Assembly: GCA_014801075.1 (NCBI GenBank)
Contig: JAAVEW010000020.1
Span: 94,037 to 158,036, forward strand
Source: Barnesiella sp.
GTDB taxonomy: Bacteria > Bacteroidota > Bacteroidia > Bacteroidales > Muribaculaceae
Length of the DNA: 64,000 nt
Direction of reading: 5' to 3'
Under the pieces are notes generated by a model. That model was not told where the DNA came from. It made no database searches and worked only from the letters and a program-made list of their open reading frames with translations. This document shows positions 9,797 through 63,705 of the stretch, piece after piece. The position numbers and the translations under genes are program-made. Within the stretch, counting starts at the first letter, position 1. Each line of letters starts with the position of its first letter.

Positions 9797-11026
9797 TTAT
9801 GCTTTCTGAGCTACGAGGCGGGCGATGTTGACGATAACCTCTACGGCCTTTTCCATGGAGCGGACGGGCACGTACTCGTAGCGGCCGTGGAAGTTGAGAC
9901 CGCCTGCAAAGATGTTGGGGCAGGGGAGGCCTTTGAATGAGAGCTGGGCGCCGTCAGTGCCGCCGCGTATGGGCACTACCTTGGGCACTACGCCGCTTTC
10001 GCGCATCGCTTCCTGAGCAATGTCGATGATGTGCATAACGGGCTCTATCTTCTCGCGCATGTTGAAATACTGGTCCTTGATTTCGATGTCGCACACGCCG
10101 GGGAACTCGTTGTTGATTTTGCGGGCGAGGTGCTGCAGTTCCTTCTTGCGGCGCTCGAAGCGGTCGCGGTCGTGGTCGCGGATGATGTAGGTGAGCACGG
10201 TTTTCTCCACAGAGCCTTCGAAGGAGATGAGGTGGTAGAAGCCTTCGTAGCCTTCGGTGTGTTCGGGAGTCTCCCATCGGGGGAGCATGATGACGAACTG
10301 GTTGGCGATGCGGATAGAGTTGATCATCTTGTGGTAGGCGTATCCGGGGTGAACGTTGCGGCCGTGGAAGGTGACCTTGGCAACGGCGGCGTTGAAGTTT
10401 TCGAACTCAAGTTCGCCTATCTCTCCGCCGTCCATAGTGTAGGCCCAGTCGGCGCCAAATCGTTCAACGTCAAATTTATGAGCGCCCTGGCCTATCTCCT
10501 CGTCGGGGTTGAAGGCGATGGCTATGTCGCCGTGCTCCACTTCGGGGTGGGCCTGCAGCCAGGCGATGGCGGTGATGATTTCGGCTACGCCGGCTTTGTC
10601 GTCGGCGCCGAGCAGTGTGTTGCCGTCGGTGACGATGAGGTCCTGACCTTCGTAGTGGTCGAGCTCGGGGAAGTCGGAGGGGGAGAGGATGATATTCTTG
10701 TCGGCGTTGAGCACGATGTCCTTGCCGTCATAGTTGCTTACTATGCGGGGGTTGACGTTGTGGCCCGACATGTCGGGCGACGTGTCGAGGTGGGCGATGA
10801 AGCCGACGGTGGGGAGCTTCTTGGAGGAGTTGGAGGGGAGGCGGGCCATCAGGTAGCCGTTATCGTCGAGGTAAATGTCGGCGAGGTTCATGTCGCGGAG
10901 CTCCTGCTCGAGGTGCTGCGCGAATATCATCTGCCCCGGAGTGGAGGGGGTGAGGTTGGTGAGTTCGTCACTCTGGGTGTCGAACTTCACGTATTTCAGA
11001 AATCTATCAACGACAGAGGTATTCAT
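9797..11026 (-). CDS. pepT: Peptidase T (M20 tripeptide aminopeptidase)
   Basis: [23 protein letters not shown] and IRGGTDG motifs. Start set at [12 protein letters not shown] (11026). Confidence 0.95.
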
Positions 11027-11559
11027 GGAATTATTAGTAAAATGAGTTATATAATGATGCAAAGTTAACAAAAATGTGGGAACTGCTCTATTTTTCCGAC
11101 ATTTTATTTGCAATTTCGGGCCAACGGGGAGCAAGAGGGCGCAACTTTATCGGGGCGATTGTGAAATATTTTTTAGAAAAATGTTTAAAATATGAAAAAT
11201 TTTACTTTAATTTGTAGAATAATCCCTAAAAGGATAGGGAGAAGTAAATTAAGTCAAAGGAGCAAATTAACTAAGATGTATATCTGACCTTAACGCACCA
11301 TGAAACTGTAATACGAGCGTAAAGAGTTAGCTATTAAAGGATTAAAGTGTAAACTGGCCATAGTTCCCGGCTATTTGCGGGAATTGCGTGCGGGAAGATG
11401 TACTCTTATGCCGAGATGCCCCATTGATTACATAATTTAACAGAATGTCGTTTCGCAGTGATTATTCAGCGAATAGTTGTTACGACCGACATCCCGAAAC
11501 AGAAAATTGAGATTATATATATTTATTGTAAAACCCAAATTAACTAAAAATTTTCTTGC

Positions 11560-14500
11560 ATGAAGAACATTTGTTTTCAAATGACTCGGAAAGCGTGGCT
11601 TACCATCGTAATGGTGTTGTGCCTTTCTTTCCCTGCTTTAGCGCAGAAAACTACAGTCACAGGTACTGTAGTTGATTACGAGGGCGAACCCGCCATCGGT
11701 GCAAGTGTCATCGCTGAAGGTACAAGCAACGGCGTTGCCACTGACTTCGATGGTAACTACAGCATCGACGTTGCCCCCAACGCCGTCCTCGTAGTATCTT
11801 ATGTGGGTTGCGAGACTCAACGTATTCCCGTTGACGGCCGCACTCATATAGATGTAACCCTTAAATCCAATGCGGTAGTCCTCAACGAGGTCGTAGCCAT
11901 CGGTTACGGTACGGTGAAGAAATCCGATGCCACAGGATCGGTAGCCGTAATCAAGCCCGACGAAATCGAAGCCGGTCTTGCCACTTCGGCCCAGGACATG
12001 CTCGTGGGCGCAACCCCCGGTGTTGTTGTAACCACTACCGGTAACCCCTCGGAAGGCGGTACAATCCGTATCCGTGGCGGCTCCTCACTGTCAGCATCCA
12101 ATGACCCGTTGATTATTGTCGACGGTGTGCCCATGGACGGCGGTTCGGTGAAAGGTTCTTCCAACCCTCTGGCGCTCATCTCGCCCGAGAACATCGAGTC
12201 AATGACCGTGCTCAAGGATGCATCGGCAACCGCTATCTACGGTTCGCGCGCATCAAACGGTGTCATCATCGTTACTACCAAGAAAGGTCAGGCAGGCAAG
12301 CCCCAGGTTAACTTCTCGGCCAACCTTTACGTAGCCACTTCACGCAAGAAAGTTGATATGATGGACGGCAACCAGTTCCGTGCCTACGTTCTCGACCACT
12401 ACGGCGAAGAGTCAAGCCAGGCTACAGGTCTCGGTACCTACAACACCAACTGGCAGGACGAAGTGCTCCGCACATCCGTTTCTTCAGACTATAACCTCTC
12501 GGTAGGCGGTACCGTAGGTATCCTTCCCTACCGCGTAGCAGTAAGCTATACTTCTAACGAAGGTATCATCAAAAAGACCGGTATGGACCGCGCGACTGCC
12601 AGCATCAACCTGTCGCCCAAGTTCTTCGACGGTCTCCTTCAGGTCAACGCCAACGTCAAGGGCGCTTACGTGCGCAACGAATATGAGCAGGGTGTGCTCG
12701 GCGGAGCTATCAGCTTCAACCCGACTCTCCCCGTCAAGAACCCTGACGGCAACGTGTTCAACAACTGGACTACTTACACCTCGTCAGGCCAGACAGCAGG
12801 CCCCGACACCCCCGGATCGGCCATCAACACCATCGAGGCCATCAACCCCATCTCACGTCTGCAGGACTACGAGTCAAAATCTGACGTGTACCAGTCGGTA
12901 GGTAACCTCCAGCTTGACCTGCGCATGCCCTTCCTCCGCGACCTGCGTGCCAACCTCAACCTCGGCTACGACTACAGCCACGGTTCGGTAACAAGCTACA
13001 ACTATCCCTTCTCACCCGAGGCATGGAAAGCGGGCCACCGCTCACCCGGCGTAGAGGATGCAGTGAAGGACGGTTACTCAACCATCAACTACGAGAAACA
13101 GCGTATCTACAACCTCCTTCTCGAGTTCTACCTCAACTACAACAAGGACCTCGCAGCCATCCAGTCATCAATCGACGTGACCGCCGGTTACTCTTGGCAG
13201 AAATTCTACAACAAGGGTTGCAACTGGAGCCCCGTTTACGCTCCCGGCCAGGAATTTGACGGCTACCTCTACAATCCCCGCACTGACTACAGCAAGCCCT
13301 ATCAGCTCGTATCGTTCTTCGGTCGTCTGCAGTATGGCTTCATGGACAAATATCTGTTGACAGTAACTGTACGTCGCGACGGTTCGTCACGCTTCAGCAA
13401 GGACAACCGTTGGGGCACATTCCCCTCAGTGGCTCTCGCATGGCGCATGATCGACGAGTCGTTCATGGAAGGCGCCCGCGGCTGGCTCTCTGACCTTAAG
13501 ATTCGCGGTACATGGGGTATCACCGGTCAGCAGAACCTCGGTGACGACTTCTCACGCCTCTTCCCCTACCTCCCCATCTACAACGTGTGGACCGGTTCGG
13601 AAAACATGGGCTTCAACCCCATTACCGGCGCTTACCTCCCCATCGTAGCTCCCAGCAGCTATAACGCCGACCTCAAATGGGAGGAAACAACTACATGGAA
13701 CCTCGGTGTTGACTTCGGTTTCCTCAACAACCGCATCAACGGTAGCATCGATGCTTACTACCGCAAGACCAAGGACCTCCTTACCAGCACCACTTACGCT
13801 GCAGGTTCTAACCTCGGCCCTGACGGTCCCATGAATATCGGTGACCTTACCAACAAAGGTATCGAGTTCAACTTGATCACCCGTCCTATCGTGACCCGTG
13901 ACTTCACATGGAACTCAAGCCTCAACGTCTCTTACAACAAGAACGAAATCACTCACCTCGCGCAGGGTGCCGACATCCCCACCGGTGACATCGGCAACTC
14001 GCTCAACGTGCAGCTCCAGCGCGAAGGCTACGCAGCCAACTCATTCTTCGTTTACGAGCAGGTGTACAACCCCGACGGCACTCCCGCTGAAGGCGTTTAC
14101 GTTGACCGCAACGGCGACGGCCAGCTCACTGATGCCGACAAGTACATGTTCCACAGCCCCGATCCCAAGTGGACTCTCAACTGGCAGAACACCTTCAACG
14201 TGAAGAACTGGGACTTCGGTATCAGCCTGCGCGCCAACTTCGGCAACTGGGTGTTCAACAAGACCCAGCAGGACAACTCGTTCACTTCAGTAACCGACGC
14301 CCTCCCCTTGAGCAACCTTATGAACGATACCTATCTGTTCACCTCAACCCGCTCGACTTCACTGCTCGCCAGCGACTACTGGGTCCAGAACGCATCGTTC
14401 CTGCGCTGCGACAACATCACAGCCGGTTACACATTTGACAACCTCCTGAACAACGCCCTCCGTCTGCGCCTCTTCGCAGCCGTTCAGAATCCCTTCGTAA

Positions 14501-28910: not shown

Positions 28911-29303
28911 TCAGGTATTCTGTTCCGATTCCGTTCCGATTCTAAGTCCCGATGCAGCCAGTAATACCTGGATTAAGCGTTCCTTTTCCGCAAGCAGGTC
29001 AAGGAGCGCTTGCTTTTCTTTAATTTGGTGCTCTGCTCCTATGGTTACAGTAGCTGAACCGACGGTAGTATGAGCACTGATGTCGGAGTATTTCTTGATT
29101 GTGCCATGTGGTACCTCAAATGCGTCGGCCGGGTTCAGCCCTGATGCTAAACATAGTTTCTCCCATAACTCGCAATCCATTGTGGGCTTGGCAAATATGG
29201 TCGATAAGTAGTTGTAGGATATATGTGCGGCCTCTGCGACCTCTCGTTTTTTTATGTTTTGGGATTCAATGTGTTTTTTGAGTAATTTTCCAAGATGTTT
29301 CAT
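28911..29303 (-). CDS. CI-like XRE HTH repressor
   Basis: N-terminal HTH (KKREVAEAAHISYNYLSTIF), divergent from a Cro-like ORF. Confidence 0.75.
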   Translation of the reverse strand: MKHLGKLLKKHIESQNIKKREVAEAAHISYNYLSTIFAKPTMDCELWEKLCLASGLNPADAFEVPHGTIKKYSDISAHTTVGSATVTIGAEHQIKEKQALLDLLAEKERLIQVLLAASGLRIGTESEQNT

Positions 29304-29335
29304 GTCTCAAAATGTTAAATAAGATTAAACTAATC

Positions 29336-29375
29336 GAGAATAACATTCTCAAATAGTTAAACTTTCAACTATTTG
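29336..29375. promoter_or_regulatory. Candidate repressor operators in the divergent intergenic region
   Basis: IRs GAGAAT-N3-ATTCTC (29336-29350) and CAAATAGTT-N8-AACTATTTG (29350-29375). Confidence 0.45.
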
Positions 29376-29427
29376 TTGTTACTTTGCTTTCGTAAATATA
29401 CGACAACAATTTTACTTTTCCAAGCAT

Positions 29428-29637
29428 ATGACAGCAAATGAGGCTCTTGACCAATACCTAAAATCGCTTGAATCTAAGGAGCGAGCTATCAAATCGCGTG
29501 ATATACGCTACTTATGCCAGAAAACGAGTAGCGTTCTATACGACTGGAAGAAGGGGAGAACTCCTATTCCCAGTGTATATCGCGACAAAATTATTGAAGC
29601 AGTTGGAATAAATATATTTGAAAATGTCGCAAATTGA
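29428..29637 (+). CDS. Cro-like small HTH protein
   Basis: 69 aa, first gene of the rightward operon, VLYDWKKGRTPIP. Confidence 0.6.
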   Translation: MTANEALDQYLKSLESKERAIKSRDIRYLCQKTSSVLYDWKKGRTPIPSVYRDKIIEAVGINIFENVAN

Positions 29638-29647
29638 TTAAATTGAC

Positions 29648-30208
29648 ATGAACAGGCCATTAACGGATATAGAATTTTTTTCATACGAAGGAGAAGTTTG
29701 GTATCGACACCGGGATTCTACTCTTAACCTCCTTCGTGAAGCTGACACCAATATCCTTGACGCGCTCATGGATACTATCTCGACTTTCTACCCCAAAGCT
29801 TATGAAGCGTTGTGTGCAGAATATAAAGGCTGCGCGCTTAATCGGTCGTATTATCGCTTCCGTATAGCCTGTCGATTTATTCGGTGCAACTTTGCACAAT
29901 TGGATAATATCCCGGATGTCGCGGACGGGTGCCAGTGCTCTTTCGAATATGTGCCTTGCCCTCTTCGTGGTGAGTGCCGGCACGAGAGAATTATCTGTCG
30001 CCCCGAGTTCGACCATAAATTATCAGTGGCCGAGATACCGGTCCTTAAGTTATGGTACAATGGACTTTCTGTCGATGAAATCGCAGCGCAGCTGTGTCTC
30101 TCTCCCCATACTATTCATAATCACATTCGCCATGCGTATCAACGGCTCAATATCCACACTAAAAGTGAATTTGTCAGATATGCCTCTCAACACAACTTGT
30201 TCACATGA
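29648..30208 (+). CDS. Transcription regulator with C-terminal LuxR-type HTH and Cys-rich N-domain
   Basis: GLSVDEIAAQLCLSPHTIHNHIRHAYQRLNI; CPLRGEC...C. Confidence 0.8.
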   Translation: MNRPLTDIEFFSYEGEVWYRHRDSTLNLLREADTNILDALMDTISTFYPKAYEALCAEYKGCALNRSYYRFRIACRFIRCNFAQLDNIPDVADGCQCSFEYVPCPLRGECRHERIICRPEFDHKLSVAEIPVLKLWYNGLSVDEIAAQLCLSPHTIHNHIRHAYQRLNIHTKSEFVRYASQHNLFT

Positions 30209-33200
30209 AATCATCCAATCTTAAATATAGCCGTTTTGAGGTGCAGCGCGTGCGTGACCTCGATATTAGACAATTCATTCCCGGGTGTAATCCAAGCAAA
30301 GCATCCCAGAATGTAGAATGCCCTTTCTGTGGGAAGATGAAATTCAGCGTTACCCATAAGAAAGGTTACAACTGTGCCAAGTGTTGGGCTTGCAATGAAG
30401 GCTTCAGTGGCCCTATCGAGGCTGTGGCTTACTATTCCAAGATTAATCTCGATTCCGATTGGCTGCATGCTCTTGAAGAAACTGCACGACAAGGCGGAAT
30501 AGTCCTGGTTCCCGAGGAACAACGTCGTAATGACCTGTTAGCAGCCGAGGTCAAGACCAATCAATCGTCCTTTATTCGGAAACAACTCGATGGGTCGGGA
30601 CTATGCGAGGCGGACATAATGGCTAATATCATCGAGGGGGGACAGGAATTGATGCGTTCTCCCTTCCGCAAGGGTCGAGTTAACGAATCGTTCGTCCCGG
30701 ATGAAACAGGCGATGAAATGCTGATATATTACTACGATCTCAACGGGCGCCCTATGATGTATACGCCCAGAGGGTCGTCTAAACCTCGTCAATACTTACG
30801 CGTTCGCTGGTCTAATCCGGCATTGCATCTCAGCCGAGATGGTAAAGAAATGAAATATCAGACTCCTGCCGGAGCTCCATGCCGCGTATATATCCCGGAG
30901 AAAATACGCCGTCTCTATAAAAGTAAAACTCACATCGATACTCTATTCCTTCAAGAAGGTGAGAAAAAAGCGGAGAAAGCATGTAAACACGGCATGCTTT
31001 CAATCGGAATACAGGGGATTAACAACTTTGGCTCTCAGCAGGAGGGTCTTTTGCAAGACATCCAGGATATTGCCAAAGTTTGCTCTATTGCAAATATAGT
31101 GCTTGTTATGGACTCGGACTGGAACGATTTGCATCGGGAAATAATCGTCGGCGACAGCGCTGATAAACGGCCTAATTCTTTCTCAAAGGCTGTCATCAAG
31201 TATCGGCAATACATGAAGACTTTCAACACCATTGGCCTCTCCGTAAATATCTGGTGGGGCCATGTGAACGAGAACGAGCATGGCGACAAAGGTGTCGATG
31301 ACCTCCTTTGCGGTTCTCTGCTTGGGCGTGAGTCTGAACTTGTCGAGGACATTGAGCGAACGATGAACTCTCACGACGGGCGTGGAACGTGGCTCAATAT
31401 CCACAAAATCACTGAGGAATCAGATACAAAAATTCGTGATTTTTGGTCATTGAATGATGTTCAAGCATTCTATGAAGTCCACAAAGAACGCTTGACCGGA
31501 GTCGATACCTTCAAAATAGGCAATATCCGCTATAGGGTTGAGAACGGAAAACTCATTCCGATGAGCCGATACTCTTCGTCTACGGATATTTACACTGTCA
31601 CTCAGACCTCGAAAGGTGAGGACAAGGTTGAGTTTAACGACCATGAAGCTTTCCGCTTTCTTACAGCCAATGGCTTTCGTCGTCTGCGAAACAGTGACGA
31701 GGCGGCCACCGGATACGAGCTTATTCGCATTGATGACGGTATCATCGACCGTGTGGCGTCTTATGAAGTGCGCGATTTTATACGCGACTATATCAACAAG
31801 AACTGCAAGTCCGATCTTGTCCTGCTGTTCTTTTCAAAGCGACTGTCTACCTTGATGGCGGATAAGCAGCTCGAAAATCTCGACATTATAACTGATGATT
31901 TCAATAATTTTTCATCGGGCGTGCAAAGGACTTATTACAATAACGGTCAGGTAGAGATTACCGCAAATACAATCACACCAAACAAGCCTATCAATCAGGT
32001 GTGGCGAAATCGAATTGTGCCGCGTCGTTTTCGTCGTGTCCCTATCATAAAGGATATTCAAAAGATTGGTGACAATTTTTACATAGAGTACACTCAGGAA
32101 GCTGCTAAATGTGAGTTCCTATCGTTTATCGTCAACACTTCAAACAACTTTTACTCACACTATGCTCCGCGCGACCTTTTAGAATCAGAAGCATTCGAAT
32201 GGATTCATCACATAGTTAATAAAATCACGACAATCGGCTACTTACTGTGTGATTATAAATATGCTGCCGAACGTAAAGCTGTCGTCATTCAGGACCACCT
32301 CATGTCGGAGGTGGGCCAGAGCCACGGAGGAGCCGGTAAGTCGATTGTCGGAAATGCAATCGGGCATGTCGTTTCGCAGTTCTTCATTGATGGTAAGCAG
32401 ATGAAGCGAGATGATGAGTTCCTCCTGTCCGGTGTCACCAAGGTAACACGTAATATATTCATCGATGACGTTAAAACGAACTTTGCCTTTGAGAACCTTT
32501 TCGCTATGGTTACAGGGCCAATGTATGTCAACCCAAAAGGCAAAGACCGTTATTGCATCCCTCTTGAGGACTCCCCGAAAATACTGATTACAACCAATCA
32601 TGCTATTAATAAAGCTAATGAAGCCGCGACGAAACGTCGAATCATATACATGGAGTTTTCAACCTGGTATAATCCAGGCCATACTCTCGTCGACGATTTT
32701 CACCACATGTTCTTCGACGATTGGGACGAGGAGCAATGGAATCTCTTTGATAATTTCATGGCAGAATGTGTGATGTATTATTTTCGCTCATTTGAGAACT
32801 GCTGGGAGAGAGAGGGCGTCGGGGCTGTGGCTCCTCCCATGAAGAATATCGAGCTGCGTACTCTCCGACAGGAAATGTCCGAAGTGCTTTATCAATGGGC
32901 CGAGGAATACTTCGACCCATCAGGAACCCATCTCAACGAGCGAATTAAACGTGCTGACCTCGTGGCCGCGTTCTTCGATTATGCCGGTGGCCCTGCCGGG
33001 CACGGCGTTACTCGAACCAATTTCAAGCTCAAAATCCAAGCATATTGCAAGTTTAAAGGCTACGATTTTAATATCGATCGCCCTAATAGAGACAAAGCTT
33101 ATTACTCCGATTGGAAACCGTTGCATCCGGATGAATCATTTCTCGGCTCTGACGATAAATCCGGCGGCGCAGAATATTTCAAAGTTTACTCGCCGGCTAA

Positions 33201-33225
33201 AGAAAAAGAAGGTAAACCATTTTAA
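30205..33225 (+). CDS. Phage primase-helicase (Zn finger, TOPRIM-like, SF3-like helicase)
   Basis: CPFC...CWAC; LQEGEKKAEKA and MDSDWND; Walker A GGAGKS; Walker B IFIDD. Confidence 0.8.
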   Translation: MKSSNLKYSRFEVQRVRDLDIRQFIPGCNPSKASQNVECPFCGKMKFSVTHKKGYNCAKCWACNEGFSGPIEAVAYYSKINLDSDWLHALEETARQGGIVLVPEEQRRNDLLAAEVKTNQSSFIRKQLDGSGLCEADIMANIIEGGQELMRSPFRKGRVNESFVPDETGDEMLIYYYDLNGRPMMYTPRGSSKPRQYLRVRWSNPALHLSRDGKEMKYQTPAGAPCRVYIPEKIRRLYKSKTHIDTLFLQEGEKKAEKACKHGMLSIGIQGINNFGSQQEGLLQDIQDIAKVCSIANIVLVMDSDWNDLHREIIVGDSADKRPNSFSKAVIKYRQYMKTFNTIGLSVNIWWGHVNENEHGDKGVDDLLCGSLLGRESELVEDIERTMNSHDGRGTWLNIHKITEESDTKIRDFWSLNDVQAFYEVHKERLTGVDTFKIGNIRYRVENGKLIPMSRYSSSTDIYTVTQTSKGEDKVEFNDHEAFRFLTANGFRRLRNSDEAATGYELIRIDDGIIDRVASYEVRDFIRDYINKNCKSDLVLLFFSKRLSTLMADKQLENLDIITDDFNNFSSGVQRTYYNNGQVEITANTITPNKPINQVWRNRIVPRRFRRVPIIKDIQKIGDNFYIEYTQEAAKCEFLSFIVNTSNNFYSHYAPRDLLESEAFEWIHHIVNKITTIGYLLCDYKYAAERKAVVIQDHLMSEVGQSHGGAGKSIVGNAIGHVVSQFFIDGKQMKRDDEFLLSGVTKVTRNIFIDDVKTNFAFENLFAMVTGPMYVNPKGKDRYCIPLEDSPKILITTNHAINKANEAATKRRIIYMEFSTWYNPGHTLVDDFHHMFFDDWDEEQWNLFDNFMAECVMYYFRSFENCWEREGVGAVAPPMKNIELRTLRQEMSEVLYQWAEEYFDPSGTHLNERIKRADLVAAFFDYAGGPAGHGVTRTNFKLKIQAYCKFKGYDFNIDRPNRDKAYYSDWKPLHPDESFLGSDDKSGGAEYFKVYSPAKEKEGKPF

Positions 33226-37931: not shown

Positions 37932-38330
37932 ATGAAAGTAAGCATAGAAAAACAATCTGACGGCTCGTATATAGCCTACAACACCACCGGCGAAAAGGTG
38001 CAGCTCATCGGCACCGGCAACACCGTCAAGGAAGCAAAAGAGGATTTCTTTAATTCACTTGACGAAATCCTTCAGACGTACAATGAAATCGGTGATGATA
38101 TTCCCGAATTCTTGAATGAAGATATAGAATTTCGCTTTGACATCACATCTCTGTTCGAGTATTACTCGATGTTCAACGTCAGCGCACTCGCTCGCTATCT
38201 CGGAATCAATGACAGCCTCATGCGTCAATACCGCTCCGGCGTCGCTCAGATTTCCGACAAGCAGCTCGAAAAGATTGAGGCAGGTATCCACCGCCTCGGC
38301 TCAGAACTTGCCGCTCTTCGTCTTGTTTGA
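37932..38330 (+). CDS. hicB: HicB-family antitoxin with C-terminal HTH
   Basis: GTGNTVKEAKEDF; NVSALARYLGINDSLMRQYRSG. Confidence 0.85.
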   Translation: MKVSIEKQSDGSYIAYNTTGEKVQLIGTGNTVKEAKEDFFNSLDEILQTYNEIGDDIPEFLNEDIEFRFDITSLFEYYSMFNVSALARYLGINDSLMRQYRSGVAQISDKQLEKIEAGIHRLGSELAALRLV

Positions 38331-38447: not shown

Positions 38448-39083
38448 ATGCAAAAGTTATTTATCCCCATTCTCATGTTAGCATTCTGCATGATGATAGC
38501 GTGCTCCCATTCAAGTTCATTCAGCGACATTGAAGAACAGGCCCTATCCGCAGCACAACAATTCGTCCAGTCTGAATATGCTCCTGACGCAGACTTTATA
38601 CAAGACGGAACTGTTATTGAACCAACTTCTGTCGCCGACCGATATAAGATTCTACAGCGTTTTGACAGCGACTCTCACTATGGACATAAATTCGTTTATA
38701 GGATATGGGTACAGAAATTTTCTACAGGTTGGGAATTTGGAAATCTTGCTATTGATCGAGTTGGAGGAGGAAACGTCCTCACAACTGATGGCCGCATGAA
38801 GGATATGGAACGTCAAAATATGACCCGTCAAGAATCATCTTCAGCCGGCGGCGTAGATTTTACTATCATCAAGCGAAACGCTCCAAATTACGTCCGTGTA
38901 TATACTGAGAAACGTCTTAATCGAGACGACGTCCTCGCAGTATATAACCAGTTGAAAACTGACTATGAAATCGTTCAATTCAGCATTTCACCCAATCCTG
39001 AAGACGATGACTACATGGCTATTCAGTACGGCAGTGTCTACGAATATGACAAGGATAAAATCACGAAGTTAGTAGACTATTGA
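38448..39083 (+). CDS. Moron lipoprotein of unknown function
   Basis: Lipobox IAC; own promoter TTTG (38390)-N19-TATATTTG (38413-38420). Confidence 0.7.
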   Translation: MQKLFIPILMLAFCMMIACSHSSSFSDIEEQALSAAQQFVQSEYAPDADFIQDGTVIEPTSVADRYKILQRFDSDSHYGHKFVYRIWVQKFSTGWEFGNLAIDRVGGGNVLTTDGRMKDMERQNMTRQESSSAGGVDFTIIKRNAPNYVRVYTEKRLNRDDVLAVYNQLKTDYEIVQFSISPNPEDDDYMAIQYGSVYEYDKDKITKLVDY

Positions 39084-39100: not shown

Positions 39101-39371
39101 TTTGGCACTGTTAGTATATTGTCGTATATTTGCAGTGCTACAAATCACGATAGTAAGTCTATCCCGCCGGGCTCGGTTAATGCTCGACATGTTCCTCGGG
39201 CTTTTTTTATGCCCTTACTTAACGAAGTTTGCTTCGTTAAGTTTACATACCCAGCCTTACGGCTGCCATTCCGATAATCTTGCACTCGGCAACGGGATTG
39301 CATCGTGATTTGTAGCAACGGAATCGGCAGCCGTTTTTTTGTCTGCCTGCTACAAATCACGATGCAATATG
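39101..39371 (+). ncRNA. c4/CI-like antisense-switch leader, copy 1
   Basis: Promoter 39101-39132. A1 (39136-39151) and A2 (39348-39367) are both complementary to A' (39298-39317). Closing stem ACGGCTGCC/GGCAGCCGT followed by a T-run. ATG at 39369. Confidence 0.65.
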
Positions 39372-39644
39372 CAAACAACAGCTCTTACCGCGCCGGCTAC
39401 ACTGGCGCAAGTTCCAAACCTCCGCGCTATGGCTATGCGTGCCATCAGCGCCGCCTTCTCGTCGAAGGCTTTCATTATCGTCGCCGGCTTAGTGGCCGCG
39501 ATGATGTATTTCCACTTCATTACCATAGTCGACACCATCGCGATGCAGCGTGCCCTCGCCACTGACTGTCTCTGCGCTGCGCCCTGGGCCCTCGCCCGGC
39601 TTATACGCTCAATCAGGAAAGGAGGTAGCTATGCACGGATTTAA
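39369..39644 (+). CDS. Small hydrophobic protein, first gene under leader copy 1
   Basis: MQTTALTAP...; TM-like stretch FIIVAGLVAAMMYFHFI. Confidence 0.6.
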   Translation: MQTTALTAPATLAQVPNLRAMAMRAISAAFSSKAFIIVAGLVAAMMYFHFITIVDTIAMQRALATDCLCAAPWALARLIRSIRKGGSYARI

Positions 39645-42495: not shown

Positions 42496-42529
42496 TCTTT
42501 TAACGCGGCTTCCGTACTACCTATTTTTG
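42495..42529 (+). promoter_or_regulatory. Putative phage late promoter 1
   Basis: GTCTTT-N21-TATTTTTG. Confidence 0.6.
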
Positions 42530-42550
42530 AGGCATATTCAATTCAGAACT

Positions 42551-43576
42551 ATGCCTAAATATTACAATCTCTTTCTCAAAGGCACTGTCGGCTATTGGAA
42601 CTTCAATGCCGACATGGTCTCTGTTGTTCTTGACAAGCACAAGAACTCCAGGGTAGATGTCCTGATTGACTCACTCGGTGGCGATACAGCTACCGCTCTA
42701 TCTATCTCCTCTCTCTTCCGTTTGCATGGCGATGTTCACTGCCACTATGTAGGTATGAACGCGTCGGCTGCTACAATCGCTTCAATGGGAGCTAAGCATA
42801 TCTCCATTGATGCCGATGCCCTTTTCCTCGTTCACAAATGTATGGCGCCCGTATTTGAATGGGACTACATGAACGCTGATGAACTCGACGCTCATATCGA
42901 GGAACTGAAAAAAACGAAGAAAGATAATGAGACCATAGACGGTTGTATTGCCGGAATGTATGCAAAGCGATGCAAGAAGACCAAGGAGGAACTCCTCGAT
43001 CTGATGAAAGAAGGTGCATGGCTTACAGCCGGGCAAGCCCTCGAATGGGGCTTCGTCGATGAAATCACCAACGAAGCCGAGGACCCCGCTCCTGTGCTCA
43101 CTGACTCCGTTGCTTCTGTTATTGCAGATGCAGGCATCCCGATGCCACCGATTGACGTTAAAAAGGGCTCTTTTTTAGAACGCCTGTTCAAGGCGTTTTC
43201 GCCAAGTTTCCAATCCGCAGACGAGGCTAAAAAGCCAGAAGCTGCAAAATCAACTGTTCAAATGCCGAAAAAATTCACAGCTGTTGGTGCCCTTCTGGGT
43301 ACTGCCGTCTCGGTCTCCGATGGTAAGCTCACTATTACCGAACAGCAGGCCGACACTCTGGAGGCCGCTGTCGCAGCTCATGACACCACCGTCAATGACC
43401 TCAATTCTAAAATCGCAGAGAAGGACAGTAAAATTGCCGAACTCAATGCTAAAATCGCTGACCTCGTCAAAGAGCCTGCCGACGACACCAAAACCATAAA
43501 TCAGACTCCCGGTGAGGTGACGCAGGACTCTATCGACATCGATAAGATGTGCGATGCCATTCTCTCCAACTTCTAA
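42551..43576 (+). CDS. ClpP-like head maturation protease / scaffold
   Basis: IDSLGGD, NASAATIA, FLVHKC, AWLTAGQALEWGFVDEI; coiled-coil C-terminus; start set at MPKYY. Confidence 0.88.
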   Translation: MPKYYNLFLKGTVGYWNFNADMVSVVLDKHKNSRVDVLIDSLGGDTATALSISSLFRLHGDVHCHYVGMNASAATIASMGAKHISIDADALFLVHKCMAPVFEWDYMNADELDAHIEELKKTKKDNETIDGCIAGMYAKRCKKTKEELLDLMKEGAWLTAGQALEWGFVDEITNEAEDPAPVLTDSVASVIADAGIPMPPIDVKKGSFLERLFKAFSPSFQSADEAKKPEAAKSTVQMPKKFTAVGALLGTAVSVSDGKLTITEQQADTLEAAVAAHDTTVNDLNSKIAEKDSKIAELNAKIADLVKEPADDTKTINQTPGEVTQDSIDIDKMCDAILSNF

Positions 43577-47326: not shown

Positions 47327-47959
47327 ATGCCGAAACTCCTCTCTCCCCTTGAAGCATGTAAGGTTGACCTCTTTGCATCGGAGGCCGAACTGCACGAGAA
47401 ATATCCTGTCGCTCTCGCTGAGCGCGTCATGCGTATTCGTGAGATGTACAATTATTGGCTCGCCAATCCATCCATGAAGGACCGTCAGTTGCGTGATGCC
47501 ATAATGTCTCGTTATGGCGTATCGCAGTCAACGGCCTACTCCGACATTAGCGTAATTCATCAGCTCGTGCCTCTGCTCTCTCAGAAATCTCGTGATTTCC
47601 ACAGAGCCAGAGCCAATGAGATGCTCTTGGAAACATACGCAATGGCTAAGGCCCGGAAGGACACTAAGTCGATGGAACGCGCGGCGGCCTCTTATGCCAA
47701 ATACAACCGTGTCGATCTGGAGGACGAGATGACAATGCCATACGACGAAATAGTAATTCAGCCGTTCTGTGCTACTCTTGATGTCCGTGTGCTTGGCCTC
47801 GAACCTATCCCCGACGCATACAACTATATCGCTCAACTTACTAAAGAGTTGTCGCGCGATTTCCGTGACATCGAGGACGTGGAGTTTGAAGATGCTGACC
47901 TTGAAGAACAACTACTTTTTGCACCTCTCTCCGATGGAAATGATAAATCCGAAAGCTAA
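47327..47959 (+). CDS. Hypothetical protein, candidate small terminase
   Basis: HTH-like RYGVSQSTAYSDI; overlaps the terminase start. Confidence 0.55.
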   Translation: MPKLLSPLEACKVDLFASEAELHEKYPVALAERVMRIREMYNYWLANPSMKDRQLRDAIMSRYGVSQSTAYSDISVIHQLVPLLSQKSRDFHRARANEMLLETYAMAKARKDTKSMERAAASYAKYNRVDLEDEMTMPYDEIVIQPFCATLDVRVLGLEPIPDAYNYIAQLTKELSRDFRDIEDVEFEDADLEEQLLFAPLSDGNDKSES

Positions 47960-49580
47960 GCCTACATACTTCAACCGCCCGCAGCTCACGGCACAGCTCA
48001 TCGGTGCCCGTACTACCGTAATTGTGGCCGGGCGCCGTACCGGAAAAACCGATTCTATTGCCGCTCCCTACGTGCTGAAAATGATGCAGCGCATGCCCGG
48101 CTCAACAGGCGGAATCGTTGTGCCCACGTTCAAACATGGCCTCACCAATACGCTTCCGGGACTCTTTGCTGCTTGGGAGCGCTGGGGGTTTAAACGAGGC
48201 GTCCATTACGTCGTTGGTCGCCGTCCCCCTAAATCGTTCGCCAAACCTATAACTGAGCCTCATGACTGGGAGCAGGTTATATCTTTCTATAACGGGTCGG
48301 TTGCAATCCTCCTTTCTCAGGACCGCACCGGCGCCGCCAACTCTCTCACGCTCTCATGGCTGCTCATCGACGAGGCTAAATTTATTGACCCCGTGCGTCT
48401 GCATGAGGAAACTTTCCCCGCCAATGGTGGAATCAAGACCCATTTCTCACGCCATTCATTCAATCATGCAGTCCTCATTCTTTCAGATATGCCGCAGAGT
48501 AAAAAGGGCTCATGGTTTCTCGAATACGAGAAAAAGATGAACCCCGAGATTATCCGTGCTATCGAGGCAGGCGTGTACGAAGTATGGAGACAGAAACAGA
48601 AAATCGTTGAACTGAGAAAGAAAGGTGTCGAGCCTCCATCTTATCTCCGCGGTTATCTGCGGCGCCTCGATGCTAACATCAATAAGTTGCGCTCTATCGC
48701 TACTTATTATCGTGAATACTCTTCAGTTGAGAACGTCGAGCTGCTTGGCGAACAGTACCTGCGAGATATGAAACGTGACCTGACGCCGCTTACCTTTCAA
48801 ACATCGATTATGTGTCAGAAAATCGGTATTGCCCGCGATGGTTTCTACTCCTCTATGAAGGAAGGGCATAAATATAATGCCAGTGATTTTGAATATCTTG
48901 ACAATCTCGGTTATGACTTTGTTCCCGAGGCAATGGATTGCCGGGCTGACCGCGACCTCGATCGCTTCCGGCCTATTTGCATAGGTATGGACTACAATGC
49001 TAATATCAACTGGATTGTAGCCGGACAGCCCGATGAATCAATCGGCCGATTAAACATCCTCAAATCCTTCTATGTCAAGTATGAGAGAAAACTCCCTGCC
49101 CTTATAGCCGATTTCTGCCAATATTATGCCCATCATAGGTGTAAGACGGTGGTGTTCTATTATGACACCACGGCTCTCGGCTCTAACTACGCCGTCAACA
49201 ATGTCGACTTCCGATATACCATCATCGAAGAGTTTAAGCGGCACGGTTGGTATGTCGTGGCAATCCCTTTGGGCAATCCGATGCATCATGAGGAAAAATA
49301 TCACCTAATCAATCATGGATTTGCCGGCAGAAACCGCCTTACTCCATATTTTAATCGACAGAATAACGATGACCTTATCCTCGCTATTCAGTCGGCCGGT
49401 GTGACTCGCGGTCGTAAAGGTTTTCACAAGGATAAATCCGGAGAAAAACTTGCCGAGACCGAGGACGATCGCCTTGAACTGCGTACCGATGGCACAGATG
49501 CCTTCGACACGCTGTATATCGGTTGTGAGAAATTCCCGCATTTTGGCGGTTCGTTCGTCGATGTGTCCGGTCTCATGTAG
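47934..49580 (+). CDS. Terminase large subunit
   Basis: Walker A VAGRRTGKT, Walker B LLIDEAK, nuclease IGMDYN and TDGTDAFD. Start at 47934 or 47940. Confidence 0.88.
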   Translation: MEMINPKAKPTYFNRPQLTAQLIGARTTVIVAGRRTGKTDSIAAPYVLKMMQRMPGSTGGIVVPTFKHGLTNTLPGLFAAWERWGFKRGVHYVVGRRPPKSFAKPITEPHDWEQVISFYNGSVAILLSQDRTGAANSLTLSWLLIDEAKFIDPVRLHEETFPANGGIKTHFSRHSFNHAVLILSDMPQSKKGSWFLEYEKKMNPEIIRAIEAGVYEVWRQKQKIVELRKKGVEPPSYLRGYLRRLDANINKLRSIATYYREYSSVENVELLGEQYLRDMKRDLTPLTFQTSIMCQKIGIARDGFYSSMKEGHKYNASDFEYLDNLGYDFVPEAMDCRADRDLDRFRPICIGMDYNANINWIVAGQPDESIGRLNILKSFYVKYERKLPALIADFCQYYAHHRCKTVVFYYDTTALGSNYAVNNVDFRYTIIEEFKRHGWYVVAIPLGNPMHHEEKYHLINHGFAGRNRLTPYFNRQNNDDLILAIQSAGVTRGRKGFHKDKSGEKLAETEDDRLELRTDGTDAFDTLYIGCEKFPHFGGSFVDVSGLM

Positions 49581-49873: not shown

Positions 49874-50080
49874 ATGAAAAAATTTGAAATACGCCTTGCA
49901 GAACAGCATCGACGCAATGCTCTGCATTTGAAAAATCTTACCGCATTCATTGAGAACCCCGAGCGCTTCAATAAACTCGCTCCTGAGGACCAACAGTTAA
50001 TTCAGACCCAACAGGCTCTTATGGCACGCCTTGATGATGTTCTGGAGCAACGTTTACGCAGACTTAATATTCCCGTATAA
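49874..50080 (+). CDS. Small helical phage protein (crAss001_48-like pattern)
   Basis: L.NL.AFI...F..L...Q.L...Q...M....VL..RL pattern. Confidence 0.55.
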   Translation: MKKFEIRLAEQHRRNALHLKNLTAFIENPERFNKLAPEDQQLIQTQQALMARLDDVLEQRLRRLNIPV

Positions 50081-50670
50081 TGCAGACACTCAAAACAGGC
50101 AGTCGCGGACAGGATGTCCGCACTCTCCAGTCAGCCCTCTCTTTACATGTCGATGGCATTTTCGGGCCTTTAACCGAGGAGGCGGTCAAATACTTCCAGG
50201 CTGAAAAGTCTCTGACCGTTGATGGCATCGTGGGTCCTAAGACATGGGCCGCTCTTGGTGTCAAGTCTCCGGGTCGCAACATATCAAAAATCATTCTTCA
50301 CTGTACCGCCACTCCCGAAGGGCGCGACTTCACAGTGGCCCGAATTAAGGAATGGCATCTGGCTCGAGGTTTCTCGGACATAGGCTATCATTATGTTATA
50401 TATCGTGATGGCTCTGTAAACGTCGGCCGTCCCGAAGCCGTGGCCGGAGCTCATTGCACCGGGCAAAATTCTTGCTCAATAGGTATTGCCTACGTAGGAG
50501 GTTGCGCAGCTGATGGTAAAACACCTAAAGATACGCGTACTTCCGAGCAAAAGTCAGCACTGCATAAGCTCGTCGCCGAGCTGCAGAAAAAATACCCCGG
50601 CGCCTCAATTCACTGTCACTACGAATTTGCCAATAAAGCTTGCCCCTCTTTCAAACTATGCGATTTTTAA
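50080..50670 (+). CDS. Endolysin: peptidoglycan-binding domain + N-acetylmuramoyl-L-alanine amidase (T7-lysozyme type)
   Basis: VDGIFGPLT/VDGIVGPKTW; IILHCTAT; DIGYHYVI; HYEFANKACPSF. Confidence 0.92.
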   Translation: MQTLKTGSRGQDVRTLQSALSLHVDGIFGPLTEEAVKYFQAEKSLTVDGIVGPKTWAALGVKSPGRNISKIILHCTATPEGRDFTVARIKEWHLARGFSDIGYHYVIYRDGSVNVGRPEAVAGAHCTGQNSCSIGIAYVGGCAADGKTPKDTRTSEQKSALHKLVAELQKKYPGASIHCHYEFANKACPSFKLCDF

Positions 50671-51990: not shown

Positions 51991-52238
51991 TTTGGCCATG
52001 TACTCTTTTTGTAGTATATTTGCAGTGCCAACTAAAACGAGACGCAAGTCTACCGATGAGCCACGGTTAACGGCTCGAACATCCTTCGGGCATTTTTTAT
52101 GCCCTTACATAAACGGCTACGGCTGTCATATCCTTACAATTTTTGCTCTTCGGAGACAAGTCTTGTTTTAGTTTGGCGACGGGATATGGCAGCCGTTTTT
52201 TTCTCTGCCTGTAATGCCAAACTAAAACAAGCACTATG
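51991..52238 (+). ncRNA. c4/CI-like antisense-switch leader, copy 2
   Basis: Promoter 51991-52022; A1 52027-52043, A' 52160-52177, A2 52216-52231; stem 52119-52133/52182-52196 plus T-run; ATG at 52236. Confidence 0.65.
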
Positions 52239-52625: not shown

Positions 52626-52690
52626 GAAATAATTTTGAGCCATTAACCAACTTCAGGAAACAGGGTGCGTCGCGAGGACTCGCCCTGTTT

Positions 52691-52725
52691 GTCTTTTTCT
52701 ATCGCCTTTATATCTGATACTTTTG
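52691..52725 (+). promoter_or_regulatory. Putative phage late promoter 3
   Basis: GTCTTT-N21-TACTTTTG, just after the hairpin at 52658-52690. Confidence 0.6.
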
Positions 52726-61889: not shown

Positions 61890-62790
61890 AACTTAATCCG
61901 GCGCACGTCGTTGCCCTTGACTTGTCCCACTGCAGACAGGGCCCAAACAAAGGACTTAACGAGTGGGGCATGCCCCGGTCGATAGTCGGGGCGTTCCTTA
62001 AATAGAATGTTGAATTCTCTGCTCTACATGAGGAGATGAGACTGACATGGTGTCAGTTCTCATCTCCTCATTTCGTTTCGTTCATTCACCATACTATTGT
62101 CAGTCACTTAAACCCGCCTGACTCCCTTTCACTCAATCAGTCCTTTGTTTGGGCCGTGCCCGCCATGGGAGTTTGCGCAGCAACAACATGAGCGCCGGAA
62201 GCCCACCCCAGGCCCCTCGTTAGGGCGCTAAGTTCGCACATCGCTCATCAGTCATAGTTTCTTCATCTCGTCGAGGATAAAGTATTGCCGTAGTCCTTCG
62301 GACATCGGCACGAAGCATTGCGCTCGCATTCGTCGTCGGCCCCACCCATTGCCGCTGACTCATTCCGGGCGCCGATGGTGGTTGTTCCAATCACCACCCG
62401 CACCCTCCATCAGTCCAAGGCGCGGAAAAGGGCAGGCCTGACGGCGAGGCGGTACTGTGTACACGCAGCAATGCCCCGGCTACTTACTCCTCTCCTCTAT
62501 ATCATCACTACGCCTTATTCGCTAAGCACTCACTTACGACCCTAACGAGCCGAATACCGCTCCATCGGAGCAGAGCGGTCGCCAATGCCTACACCGCACC
62601 ATCTTACAGATGACAGCGGTGTAGGCGTTGGCCTCATTACCGTGCATCTGTCGCCGTGCCTCGGTTTCGCTCCCATCTGCACGCTTGCCCCACTCGCATA
62701 TTCCGCTTCTTTGAAAGGCTTAGGCGGCATCGCTCCGTAGGGCGGGCGGGGGTCGTTTGACGGAAAAAGGGGAAAAATTCCCCTTTTGAC
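61890..62790 (+). ncRNA. Candidate large structured non-coding RNA/DNA element
   Basis: No credible long ORF. Perfect long-range complements of 17, 11 and 10 bp plus several hairpins with G-U pairs on the + strand. Confidence 0.4.
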
Positions 62791-62944
62791 CCCTTTAAAT
62801 CCTTAGAAATTACGACTTTAATTTTTGAACCCCTGGAAAAATTAAAATAATCGTAAAATTTCACGGAAAACTCTAAGGAAATATCCCTTGCAAACCAGAC
62901 ATTTACGTGTGCTGTAAATTCTCCAAAAAAATATTCATTGTTGC

Positions 62945-63191
62945 TTTGTTTTCGTATTATTTTTTTGTATATTTGCAATGCCAACGTAACATGAGCGTTT
63001 GTCGTTCCCGTAGAGCCACGGTCATCGGCTCGAACATTCTTCGGGCATTTTTTATGCCCTTACAGTCATTTACGGCTGCTGTCCTCTCACAACTTTTGCT
63101 CTTCGGAGACGAAGCTCGTGTTACGTTTGGCGACGGAGGATGGCAGCCGTCTTTTACTACTGCCTGTAACGCCAAATGTAACACAAAAATG
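62945..63191 (+). ncRNA. c4/CI-like antisense-switch leader, copy 3
   Basis: Promoter 62945-62975; A1 62980-62996, A' 63114-63131, A2 63171-63184; stem 63072-63086/63136-63150; ATG at 63189. Confidence 0.65.
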
Positions 63192-63443
63192 GAAGAATTA
63201 AGACAATTGACCATAGGTCAAAAAGCCATCGTAGACGGCTATCTCGAGAATTATGAACCCGCTGAAACTTACGACCACGACATGCATGTGCTCATCGACA
63301 CGCAAACGATGATATTTCAGATGAATACAATGGGGTTCTTCGATGAAAACATGCTATCCGACTACCTCGCAGAAAAAGGTTACCGCGCCCACTTCGAGCC
63401 TGATGACGCGCTAAGTGGCTGGATAATGAAAGAGATTAGATAA
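63189..63443 (+). CDS. Small acidic protein under leader copy 3
   Basis: MEELRQLTIG..., 84 aa. The ORF-track extension to 62907 runs through the promoter and leader. Confidence 0.7.
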   Translation: MEELRQLTIGQKAIVDGYLENYEPAETYDHDMHVLIDTQTMIFQMNTMGFFDENMLSDYLAEKGYRAHFEPDDALSGWIMKEIR

Positions 63444-63470: not shown

Positions 63471-63638
63471 ATGGAAGTATGGATTTTAGTATTTGTAGTG
63501 GTCCTTATTCTCAAAGGGATTAAAGTCCCGACGAACGTGTCGGATGGCTCGCCCTCTTGTCGACGACGTTCACGTAGAACGAGACCCCGCCACAAATCAC
63601 GGGGATTGCCTTGGATGGACCCTAACTACCGTAAATAG
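63471..63638 (+). CDS. Small single-TM Arg-rich protein, 55 aa (paralog of 28512-28727)
   Basis: MEVWILVFVVVLILKGIKVPT...GLPWMDPNYRK*. Confidence 0.7.
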   Translation: MEVWILVFVVVLILKGIKVPTNVSDGSPSCRRRSRRTRPRHKSRGLPWMDPNYRK

Positions 63639-63666
63639 GTATTGTATTTATTAGAAAATAAATCGA

Positions 63667-63703
63667 CGCCACGCTGTATTTAATTTCAGCGTGGCGTTTT
63701 TTT
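63667..63703 (+). terminator. Terminator of the leader-3 operon
   Basis: ACGCCACGCTG/CAGCGTGGCGT followed by a T-run. Confidence 0.75.
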
Positions 63704-63705
63704 GT

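Follow-up and report, generated by a model that had tools for sequence, protein, structure and literature searches.

The window analysed here, a 64,000-nucleotide (nt) stretch of Barnesiella sp. DNA (contig JAAVEW010000020.1, positions 94,037 to 158,036), carries at about 29.4-64 kb a prophage of Muribaculaceae-type Bacteroidales, and this prophage harbors three copies of a leader RNA of ~210 nt in which a short address box, A', is complementary to two others, A1 at the transcript 5' end and A2 next to the start codon of a small gene. The leader is a well-supported structured RNA family, not previously described, and is best filed with the leader-embedded antisense RNAs of the P4 CI and P1 c4 kind. 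In energy models it has three alternative, individually conserved folds, and we propose, at what we judge to be an even chance, that it constitutes an RNA switch in which A' has three mutually exclusive partners, with A' as the antisense, A2 as the target and A1 as an anti-antisense, and which acts in trans on transcripts bearing the same address.

All three copies lie on the plus strand, at 39101-39371, 51991-52238 and 62945-63191, and have an identical layout with different A boxes: promoter, A1, hairpins P1, P2 and P3, the long stem P4 enclosing A', a T-run, CTGCC, A2 and ATG. An earlier sequence-only reading had pointed to the same architecture at 39101, 51991 and 62945, and every element that it listed was found at its place; a search with nhmmer and a covariance model returned exactly these three copies in the window. 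P4 is a stem of 15-16 bp that encloses a short UUCG-type hairpin region in addition to box A'. The promoter layout is TTTG-N19/20-TATATTTG in all three copies. Bacteroidetes promoters follow the consensus TTTG-N19-21-TAnnTTTG, which the promoter of copy 1 fits; it is also marked by a sigma-70 scan (TTGGCA-17-TATATT, 10/12), and its transcript start is predicted at ~39137. The features of copy 1 are:

39101-39132, plus strand: promoter, with the -33 element TTTG at 39101-39104, a 20-nt spacer and the -7 box TATATTTG at 39125-39132
39136-39151, plus strand: A1 (TGCTACAAATCACGAT), the transcript 5' end, 16 nt identical to the start of A2
39149-39163, plus strand: hairpin P1 (GATAG-TAAGT-CTATC), with the 3' part of A1 as its 5' arm
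39161-39166, plus strand: 5' half of the extension helix, AUCCCG, with its partner CGGGAU at 39293-39298, paired in the minimum-energy fold
39169-39185, plus strand: hairpin P2, GGGCUCGGUUAAUGCUC (GGGCU-CGGUUAAU-GCUC), with a loop nearly invariant across the family
39198-39214, plus strand: hairpin P3, GGGCUUUUUUUAUGCCC
39218-39241, plus strand: an extra hairpin of copy 1 only, CTTAACGAAG-TTTG-CTTCGTTAAG
39259-39340, plus strand: P4 domain, with the stem at 39259-39273/39319-39334 and seven T at 39334-39340; the stem-enclosed part is 76 nt
39297-39317, plus strand: A' (ATTGCATCGTGATTTGTAGCA)
39343-39347, plus strand: CTGCC after the T-run, which with P4 open pairs with GGCAG of its 3' strand
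39348-39368, plus strand: A2, a perfect 21-nt complement of A', adjoining the ATG at 39369

Copies 2 and 3 are laid out as follows:

51991-52238, plus strand: copy 2 module, with the -33 element at 51991, the -7 box at 52015-52022 and A1 at 52027-52043 (203 bits with the covariance model)
52058-52076, 52088-52104 and 52119-52133/52182-52196, plus strand: P2, P3 and P4 of copy 2
52160-52178, 52196-52202, 52205-52209, 52215-52231 and 52236, plus strand: A', U7, CTGCC, A2 and ATG of copy 2
62945-63191, plus strand: copy 3 module, with the -33 element at 62945, the -7 box at 62968-62975 and A1 at 62980-62996 (176 bits with the covariance model)
63013-63031, 63043-63059 and 63072-63086/63136-63150, plus strand: P2, P3 and P4 of copy 3
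63114-63132, 63151-63155, 63160-63164, 63170-63184 and 63189, plus strand: A', CUUUU, CTGCC, A2 and ATG of copy 3

The A' of copy 1 is perfectly complementary over 21 nt to A2, where 20 nt had been claimed, and over 16 nt to A1, while uninterrupted A':A2 pairing extends over 17 pairs in copy 2 and 15 in copy 3, with one G-U pair in each. When both strands of the 64 kb were searched for the reverse complement of each A' with up to four substitutions, only the module's own A1 and A2 were found. Two elements of the earlier description need qualification. The conserved GAGC..GCTC hairpin (P2) is present, but copy 1 has a weaker variant, GGGC..GCUC with a G-U pair; and the Ts that follow the long stem in the window copies are weak or absent in some relatives. 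P3 has the shared form GGGCAU6AUGCCC, which in copy 1 becomes GGGCU7AUGCCC.

Relatives were collected by DNA pattern scans of viral and genome collections, followed by nhmmer and a covariance model (R1), which gave 58 hits representing 55 distinct modules and 38 address (A') classes in public phage contigs and contigs of metagenome-assembled genomes (MAGs). By record title the contigs belong to Muribaculaceae, Duncaniella, Sangeribacter, 'Porphyromonadaceae' and Bacteroidales MAGs, a few evidently mis-binned, and the source samples are mouse gut and some human gut; many phage contigs carry two to four modules. A wider distribution, in Prevotellaceae and Bacteroidaceae or in unrelated phyla, was dropped because nhmmer and the covariance model retained Bacteroidales copies only, the hits of looser patterns in other phyla being chance terminators. 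The leader family is real and lies far beyond chance, and the proposal of a Bacteroidales leader-RNA family with three specificities on one prophage, each ahead of small unassigned genes, is borne out. Neither the window nor 13 related loci (individual loci are cited below by L numbers) gave a hit to any Rfam family at the gathering score, and for copies 1 and 2 a search up to E = 10 gave only chance hits of miRNA hairpins on the A'/A2 inverted repeat, and no C4. Literature searches on RNAs of Bacteroidales and Muribaculaceae phages yielded no description of such an element.

Evidence that the three boxes pair comes from their joint variation. In an alignment-free duplex-energy test of the 55 copies, A' bound its own A2 with a mean of -28.0 kcal/mol compared to -14.7 kcal/mol for the A2 of other modules (z = -26.8 against permuted pairings), and its own A1 with a mean of -26.4 kcal/mol compared to -12.6 kcal/mol for non-cognate A1 (z = -25.5). 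For the three window modules the energies run from -25 to -35 kcal/mol in cognate and from -7 to -17 kcal/mol in crossed pairings. Covariation was counted on a MAFFT alignment of 50 sequences, with modules parsed by the columns of a hidden Markov model. Compensatory changes occur at 13/17 A':A2 pairs, 7/15 P4 pairs and 2/5 P2 pairs, which upholds the earlier claim that each A' tracks its own A1 and A2 by compensatory change, and the local hairpins together with A':A2 are paired in 92% of alignment cells, compared to 37-40% when the partner column is slid. All three boxes change in concert, even in their 'constant' part, the first five pairs, where GCCAA/TTGGC/GCCAA (A1/A'/A2) is replaced by GCGAA/TTCGC/GCGAA or GCTAA/TTAGC/GCTAA. 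The arms of P1 covary as well (GATAG/CTATC, AGAC/GTCT, CGATG/CATCG, CAGTG/CACTG, ACGG/CCGT), and P3 is 99.7% paired, with one compensatory case. Most relatives have an extension helix between CCGnnGAGC, located between P1 and P2, and GCUCnnCGG of the UUCG hairpin inside P4; 4/9 of its pairs are compensatory, its two central pairs show double changes in 15 and 9 sequences, and 90% of its cells are paired compared to 35-48% when slid. A cap helix joins the 3' strand of P4 to the segment after the U-run: among 28 copies, GACAG goes with CTGTC in 13/13, and GGCAG with CTGCC in 11, with CTGTC in three and with neither in one. A divergent subgroup (L044, L053 and L064) has quite different sequences in which the same helices still pair. 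The 3' end of A2 mostly lies 0-5 nt before the ATG (range -4 to +9).

Across the helices, 139 G-U pairs stand against 34 A-C, and therefore the pairing takes place at the RNA level, on the plus strand. This excess, strand-specific at about 4:1, also bears on the idea that the A1/A2 direct repeats and the A' inverted repeat are DNA-level sites for recombination or cassette mobility. Modules and ORF families (open reading frames, ORFs) are indeed shuffled, and one address has been swapped between near-isogenic phages; however, each element has a consensus promoter precisely at its beginning and a start codon at its end, it is transcribed, and no recombinase gene is associated with it, so that we regard a DNA-level role as very improbable.

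The same partners also give the leader its competing folds. For RNA from the predicted transcript start to the U-run, the predicted minimum-energy fold is not P4 but A1:A' prolonged by the extension helix, with A1:A' present and P4 absent in 53/53 copies; when the first 18 nt were made unavailable in silico, P4 formed in 53/53. In the first 28 copies, forcing P4 to form carries a penalty of 0.2-27.6 kcal/mol, with ~9.6 as the typical value. Extending the RNA to ATG+30 changes the minimum-energy fold to A':A2 capped by GGCAG:CUGCC. The distance from A' to the P4 3' strand is only 2-6 nt, from which we infer that the A1:A' and P4 folds also compete sterically. The P4 domain measures 76-84 nt in 27 of these 28 copies, the value of 99 nt for L028 being a failed stem call. 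Because the A1 fold is the most stable one and excludes the long stem, A1 with the extension helix behaves in these models as an anti-antisense, or antiterminator; the earlier reading was thus right that A1 pairs with A', but A1 is not merely a second target.

On this basis we propose three states. In the first (state B), A' and the adjacent conserved segment would pair with the transcript 5' end through A1 and the extension helix (~30 bp); as the most stable fold of the nascent RNA this would block P4, the polymerase would pass, A2 would be free and the start site open, and the ORF would be ON. If A1 is unavailable (state A), the 15-16 bp of P4 would close around A' to give a hairpin domain of ~78 nt with its U-run, in which A' would be displayed single-stranded, and the ORF would be OFF by termination where the U-run is good, by the following state on read-through, or by both. 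In that state (C), free A' would pair with A2 and shut the translation start. An RNA exposing A', be it a leader terminated at the U-run, ~190 nt from the start, or a P4 domain of 76-84 nt released by processing, would then act in trans on transcripts with the same address, whether new transcripts of its own cassette or those of a superinfecting relative, and would occupy A1, forcing P4, as well as A2, blocking translation. A fast-diversifying address would make every cassette a private channel. A broader and more tentative idea, which we consider possible rather than probable, is that temperate phages of Bacteroidales carry sequence-programmable, mutually orthogonal RNA channels, in which RNA released from a cassette's leader flips leaders of the same address, its own or those of a superinfecting relative, from the translatable read-through fold to the terminated, untranslated one by toehold-like strand exchange, and immunity is escaped or gained by swapping all three boxes at once. 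To our knowledge the phylum lacks Hfq and ProQ, and if the idea is true its phages would control both immunity and gene expression through several protein-free channels.

Evidence on transcription comes from related cassettes. No public RNA run contained this phage, and raw-read runs for 'organism A' gave 0 reads; assembled contigs of four mouse-gut metatranscriptome runs (X48-X51), all from one sample, cover the cassettes of L004, a homologue of cassette 3, and L143. Such contigs cannot show local depth or the abundance of leader relative to ORF. At L004 the cassette has a depth of 76-253 compared to 0-3 for the upstream structural genes, and in one run a high-depth contig starts at the -7 box, where depth rises from 2.9 to 253 (~90-fold); because of this jump, we conclude that the promoter of this related cassette is active in vivo. 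The L004 RNA contig spans P4 and the ORFs and ends just before the cassette terminator, and the L143 cassette, at a depth of 23-73, has an adapter-marked 3' end at 4983, 10 nt before a silent tape measure gene. Three observations on these datasets stand apart. The tape-measure-like region of L004 at 10432-12061, homologous to the window from 63700 onward, has a depth of 2-7 in X48 and X49 but 114-197 in X50 and X51; the four runs share a sample code, and the tail genes upstream of the L004 cassette are near zero in all of them. A 297-nt segment of L143 (4410-4706), comprising most of a 124-aa cassette ORF, is absent from the RNA contigs of all four runs, reflecting either a phage deletion variant in the sample or an RNA joint. 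Run X45, labelled small-RNA, looks like DNA (a 4.8-kb contig of even depth), and in X52-X62 variant phages are covered at a low, uniform depth that says nothing about RNA ends.

The main competitor of the switch acting in trans is a purely cis-acting leader, in which the same folds govern only their own transcript, for example as a co-transcriptional attenuator with a translational lock against leaky termination or as a timer that switches the mRNA off on passing from state B to state C, with neither immunity nor any trans action of biological relevance; we judge it rather unlikely, the most serious of the rivals nonetheless. Several points that weigh against the trans switch are to be considered here, some of which favor this competitor. 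All partners lie on one transcript, and a cis mechanism alone accounts for all three boxes; the full-length RNA has its energy minimum in state C and the nascent RNA in state B, as in metastable leaders; and read-through RNA is abundant in lysogen-like samples. The RNA contigs of L004 and L143 run through P4 into the ORFs, so that in these two cassettes P4 is a partial terminator at best and self-repression is not tight. At least for leaders with weak U-runs, to which both cassettes belong, unlike window copies 1 and 2 with their U7, this read-through speaks against a tight shut-off of transcription. Family-wide, P4 is followed by 5-7 T within 8 nt in 53/55 copies, and L003, L018 and L019 have no real U-run; the terminator scan is unable to call P4, whose loop exceeds 8 nt. 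No discrete short leader RNA, 3' end at the P4 U-run or processing site was seen in the assembled contigs, which neither show nor exclude them. The energy models leave out kinetics, pseudoknots and proteins, and by rough geometry a pseudoknot holding A1:A' and P4 together would be strained but not strictly impossible. Finally, the gated ORFs had no match in Pfam, PHROGs, NCBIfam or PDB sequences that would give the cargo a function.

What speaks for action between molecules is the evolution of the address. Under a purely cis mechanism, address turnover much faster than that of scaffold and ORFs is unexpected unless there is selection on between-molecule specificity, and RNAs that are abundant and perfectly complementary over 15-21 nt would in any case encounter one another in trans. 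Between co-resident paralogous cassettes the ORFs are 95-96% identical, but the address boxes only 47-71%. In a near-isogenic phage represented by DNA-like contigs of runs X56 and X60, the variant of L004 9279-9620 differs at two positions in ORF F2, yet A' and A2 are both replaced (ATCATTGTTTTGTTTCGCG and GCGAAACAAAACAATG) and still complementary over 16/16 positions, and 784 other letters replace the promoter/A1 part. Address evolution thus points to trans specificity, which is suggested but not proven by these comparisons. Statistical avoidance of the same address by co-resident modules was not shown, and the existence of 38 classes would by itself make identical pairs rare.

A further alternative follows from the parts of the leader that hardly vary. 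The P2 loop CGGUUA and UCGGGCAUUUUUUAUGCCCUUAC are almost invariant in the 50 copies although partly unpaired, and a second terminator-like hairpin, GCUCGA(A)-loop-(U)UCGGGC followed by the U6-7 of the P3 loop (39182-39201 and 52073-52091), overlaps invariant bases; it was flagged by the terminator scan in copies 1 and 2 and is mutually exclusive with both P2 and P3, and it would stop the RNA at ~+75 to leave a short RNA with A1 only. A phage or host protein, or a small ligand, bound to the near-invariant P2/P3 might decide the fold, the A boxes being only the expression platform, and the phage does encode a LuxR/GerE-type regulator. However, no binding-protein candidate co-occurs with the modules (the LuxR homologue is present in only one other locus, the loci being ~8 kb), and address diversification is left unexplained. 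We consider a factor-responsive attenuator improbable; it is compatible with the switch acting in trans and does not exclude it.

Two phage systems come closest to the element. The primary papers on P4 immunity are reportedly those of Ghisotti (1992), Sabbattini (1995) and Briani (2000), and the c4 antisense RNA of P1/P7 is said to have been the subject of a paper by Citron and Schuster (1990). P4 immunity has the order seqA - CI RNA (seqB) - seqC, with the mechanism summarised in PMC4825925, and the P1/P7 system the order a1b1 - c4 - a2b2 - icd/ant, covered by Rfam C4 (RF01695) and the c4-a1b1 motif (Weinberg 2010, PMC2864571), whose known members belong to Proteobacteria and their phages (PMC2864571). 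The parallel drawn earlier with seqA-CI-seqC and a1b1-c4-a2b2 is confirmed as to layout: a same-strand antisense with upstream and downstream complementary copies behind one promoter was found in all 55 copies. As in P4, a leader behind a promoter that is constitutive in the prophage carries a stem-enclosed antisense on the same strand, within a domain of ~80 nt, and, as proposed here, specificity lies in the box sequence and RNA pairing is linked to premature termination. The differences from P4 are that there is no match in sequence or structure (Rfam being negative), that the hosts are Bacteroidales instead of Enterobacteria, that each phage contig has, in the cases seen, two to four units with an address each, that these sit in moron-like cassettes and not ahead of replication genes, that the downstream box adjoins the start codon, and that the stem is excluded by the upstream box, whose intramolecular fold is the most stable one. 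With c4 the element shares an antisense inside the leader of the operon that it would control, upstream and downstream targets of which the latter overlaps the translation start region, and variants (heteroimmune in c4) that differ in their boxes; c4, however, uses two short boxes (a', b') where one box of 15-21 nt is found here, and its RNase P processing and antirepressor target were not seen. In the P4 CI and P1 c4 kind, a mature RNA of ~77-80 nt is cut from the leader by RNase P, among others. C4 and its Rfam relatives do not match, and therefore the novelty of the family is not lowered; in Rfam and the literature searched, no leader-embedded antisense of the P4/P1 type was found outside Proteobacteria. 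The element, by analogy, resembles P4 CI and P1 c4 in layout and in probable logic but is not a member of those families.

More distant parallels exist. In Salmonella Gifsy-1, the prophage leader IsrK gives a short terminated RNA and a read-through mRNA (PMC4825925), and translation of the IsrK mRNA depends on alternative folds and on trans pairing with the short form (PMC4825925). Unlike the element here, whose short form is putative, IsrK activates its own long form and has no three-box address, and the sequences are unrelated. Exclusive folds of terminator and antiterminator, or of an open and a closed start site, decided by short pairing, and metastable co-transcriptional folds, are also known from plasmid antisense attenuation (pT181, pIP501/pAMbeta1) and type I toxin mRNAs (hok, aapA1). 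The antisense of these systems is a separate gene on the opposite strand, whereas here antisense, decoy and target lie on one transcript strand.

The genes behind the leaders form short cassettes of one to three small ORFs, which belong to three recurrent families (F1, F2 and F3) and singletons such as the 91-aa ORF of copy 1. Those of the window, with the terminator-like hairpins that follow them, are:

39369-39644, plus strand: ORF of copy 1, 91 aa, one stretch of it hydrophobic; matches no family, with homologues behind modules in L102 and L103
52236-52625, plus strand: ORF of copy 2 (F1), 129 aa; predicted to fold into a helical hairpin with one more helix and a beta-hairpin
52658-52700, plus strand: terminator-like hairpin with a T-rich tail after F1, recognised by eye and not called by the scan tool
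63189-63443, plus strand: ORF of copy 3 (F2), 84 aa, acidic; homologues behind modules in 10 loci
63471-63638, plus strand: second gene of cassette 3, a putatively coding ORF of 55 aa with a hydrophobic N-terminus
63666-63704, plus strand: intrinsic-terminator-like hairpin of 11 bp with seven T, closing cassette 3

A second ATG inside the A2 of copy 1 opens an overlapping 67-aa frame (39362-39565), and the 91-aa frame from 39369 was taken as the gene. In several F1 clusters, that with the protein of this window among them, gene callers place the start at Met-8 (122 aa), while the ATG adjoining A2 gives 129 aa and is conserved (MNEFEK...). F1 has 114 homologue clusters, all unnamed, one of them in Muribaculum intestinale; a protein search of viral contigs based on F1 gave only remote hits, which were without modules, and a Foldseek search with its AlphaFold model (pLDDT 94) gave no significant structural match. 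F3, found outside the window, comprises proteins of 61-68 aa whose N-terminus is basic. Modules combine freely with ORF families, the same address occurring with F1, F2 and F3.

Some cargos are small and hydrophobic (the copy 1 ORF, a 75-aa ORF of L143, and those of L061, L068, L102 and L103), as might be expected if the cassettes were under control like that of type I toxin-antitoxin systems, with toxic small ORFs whose mRNA is kept inert by leader fold-back and whose antisense is built in. Long-range 5' pairing with alternative folds likewise resembles the hok and aapA1 mRNAs. However, the commonest cargos look soluble, F1 being a predicted helical hairpin and F2 and F3 acidic or basic and non-hydrophobic, and there is no antisense gene on the opposite strand as type I systems have. 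Such control appears to us quite unlikely, more so than a factor-responsive attenuator.

The cassettes behave as self-contained, moron-like units that have their own promoter and terminator and are expressed in lysogen-like conditions, and not as the phage immunity region. In the window this is read from the sequence, namely from the promoters and terminator-like hairpins, and in the homologous cassettes of L004 and L143 from RNA. Modules as gates of late operons, a candidate raised by their sites before head, tail and tape-measure genes, were weakened by the cassette terminators and by the L143 RNA that ends before a silent tape measure gene.

RNA regulation has been little mapped in Bacteroidota and in their phages, and the family offers a compact three-state RNA switch, supported by comparative genomics, with a swappable address of 15-21 nt. 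Its 38 address classes are natural orthogonal variants, a parts list for riboregulators in gut Bacteroidales, and F1, F2 and F3 are marked as regulated cargo families of small phage proteins. The family also opens a route to how abundant prophages of the mouse and human gut manage without a protein repressor in the control of their accessory (moron) genes and possibly of immunity to superinfection.

The surroundings of the modules are those of a prophage whose left end (28911-30208) has a Cro/CI-type helix-turn-helix (HTH) gene on the minus strand facing a 69-aa ORF and the LuxR/GerE-type regulator. Host genes, for example for a TonB-dependent receptor, lie upstream of it in the window. Neither an integrase nor, by ARAGORN, a tRNA gene or tRNA-like structure was seen in the window, and the GenBank phage collection held no match to this phage and none to module 2. 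The other genes recognised are:

28911-29303, minus strand: Cro/CI-type HTH gene, divergent, at the left end of the prophage
29648-30208: LuxR/GerE-type regulator (phrog_10300, E 2e-56)
30205-33225: primase/helicase-like gene
42527-43576: head protease
47769-49580: large terminase
50080-50670: amidase, with more structural genes after it
63764 (start): long ORF, probably the tape measure gene, weakly similar at the N-terminus to the tape measure protein of L143

Other genes and signals recur at the upstream junction of the modules. A 132-aa ORF to which no function was assigned (37932-38330) has homologues in 12 related loci, in at least five of which (L126, L014, L060, L006 and L008) it precedes a module by no more than ~130 nt; here, it is separated from module 1 by a 211-aa ORF (38448-39083). 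In L140 (5006-5637), and also in L141 and L142, a HicA-toxin gene and its 133-aa partner are found on the minus strand directly upstream of a module/F1 cassette; the L140 phage is of Muribaculum intestinale type, and the HicA pair is one more accessory insertion at this junction. A conserved hairpin, AAAAAGGGGAAnnnTTCCCCTTTT, precedes the module 3 promoter by ~180 nt, at 62767-62792 of the window, and is present at 9197-9220 of L004; it resembles a bidirectional terminator, and several RNA contigs break there.

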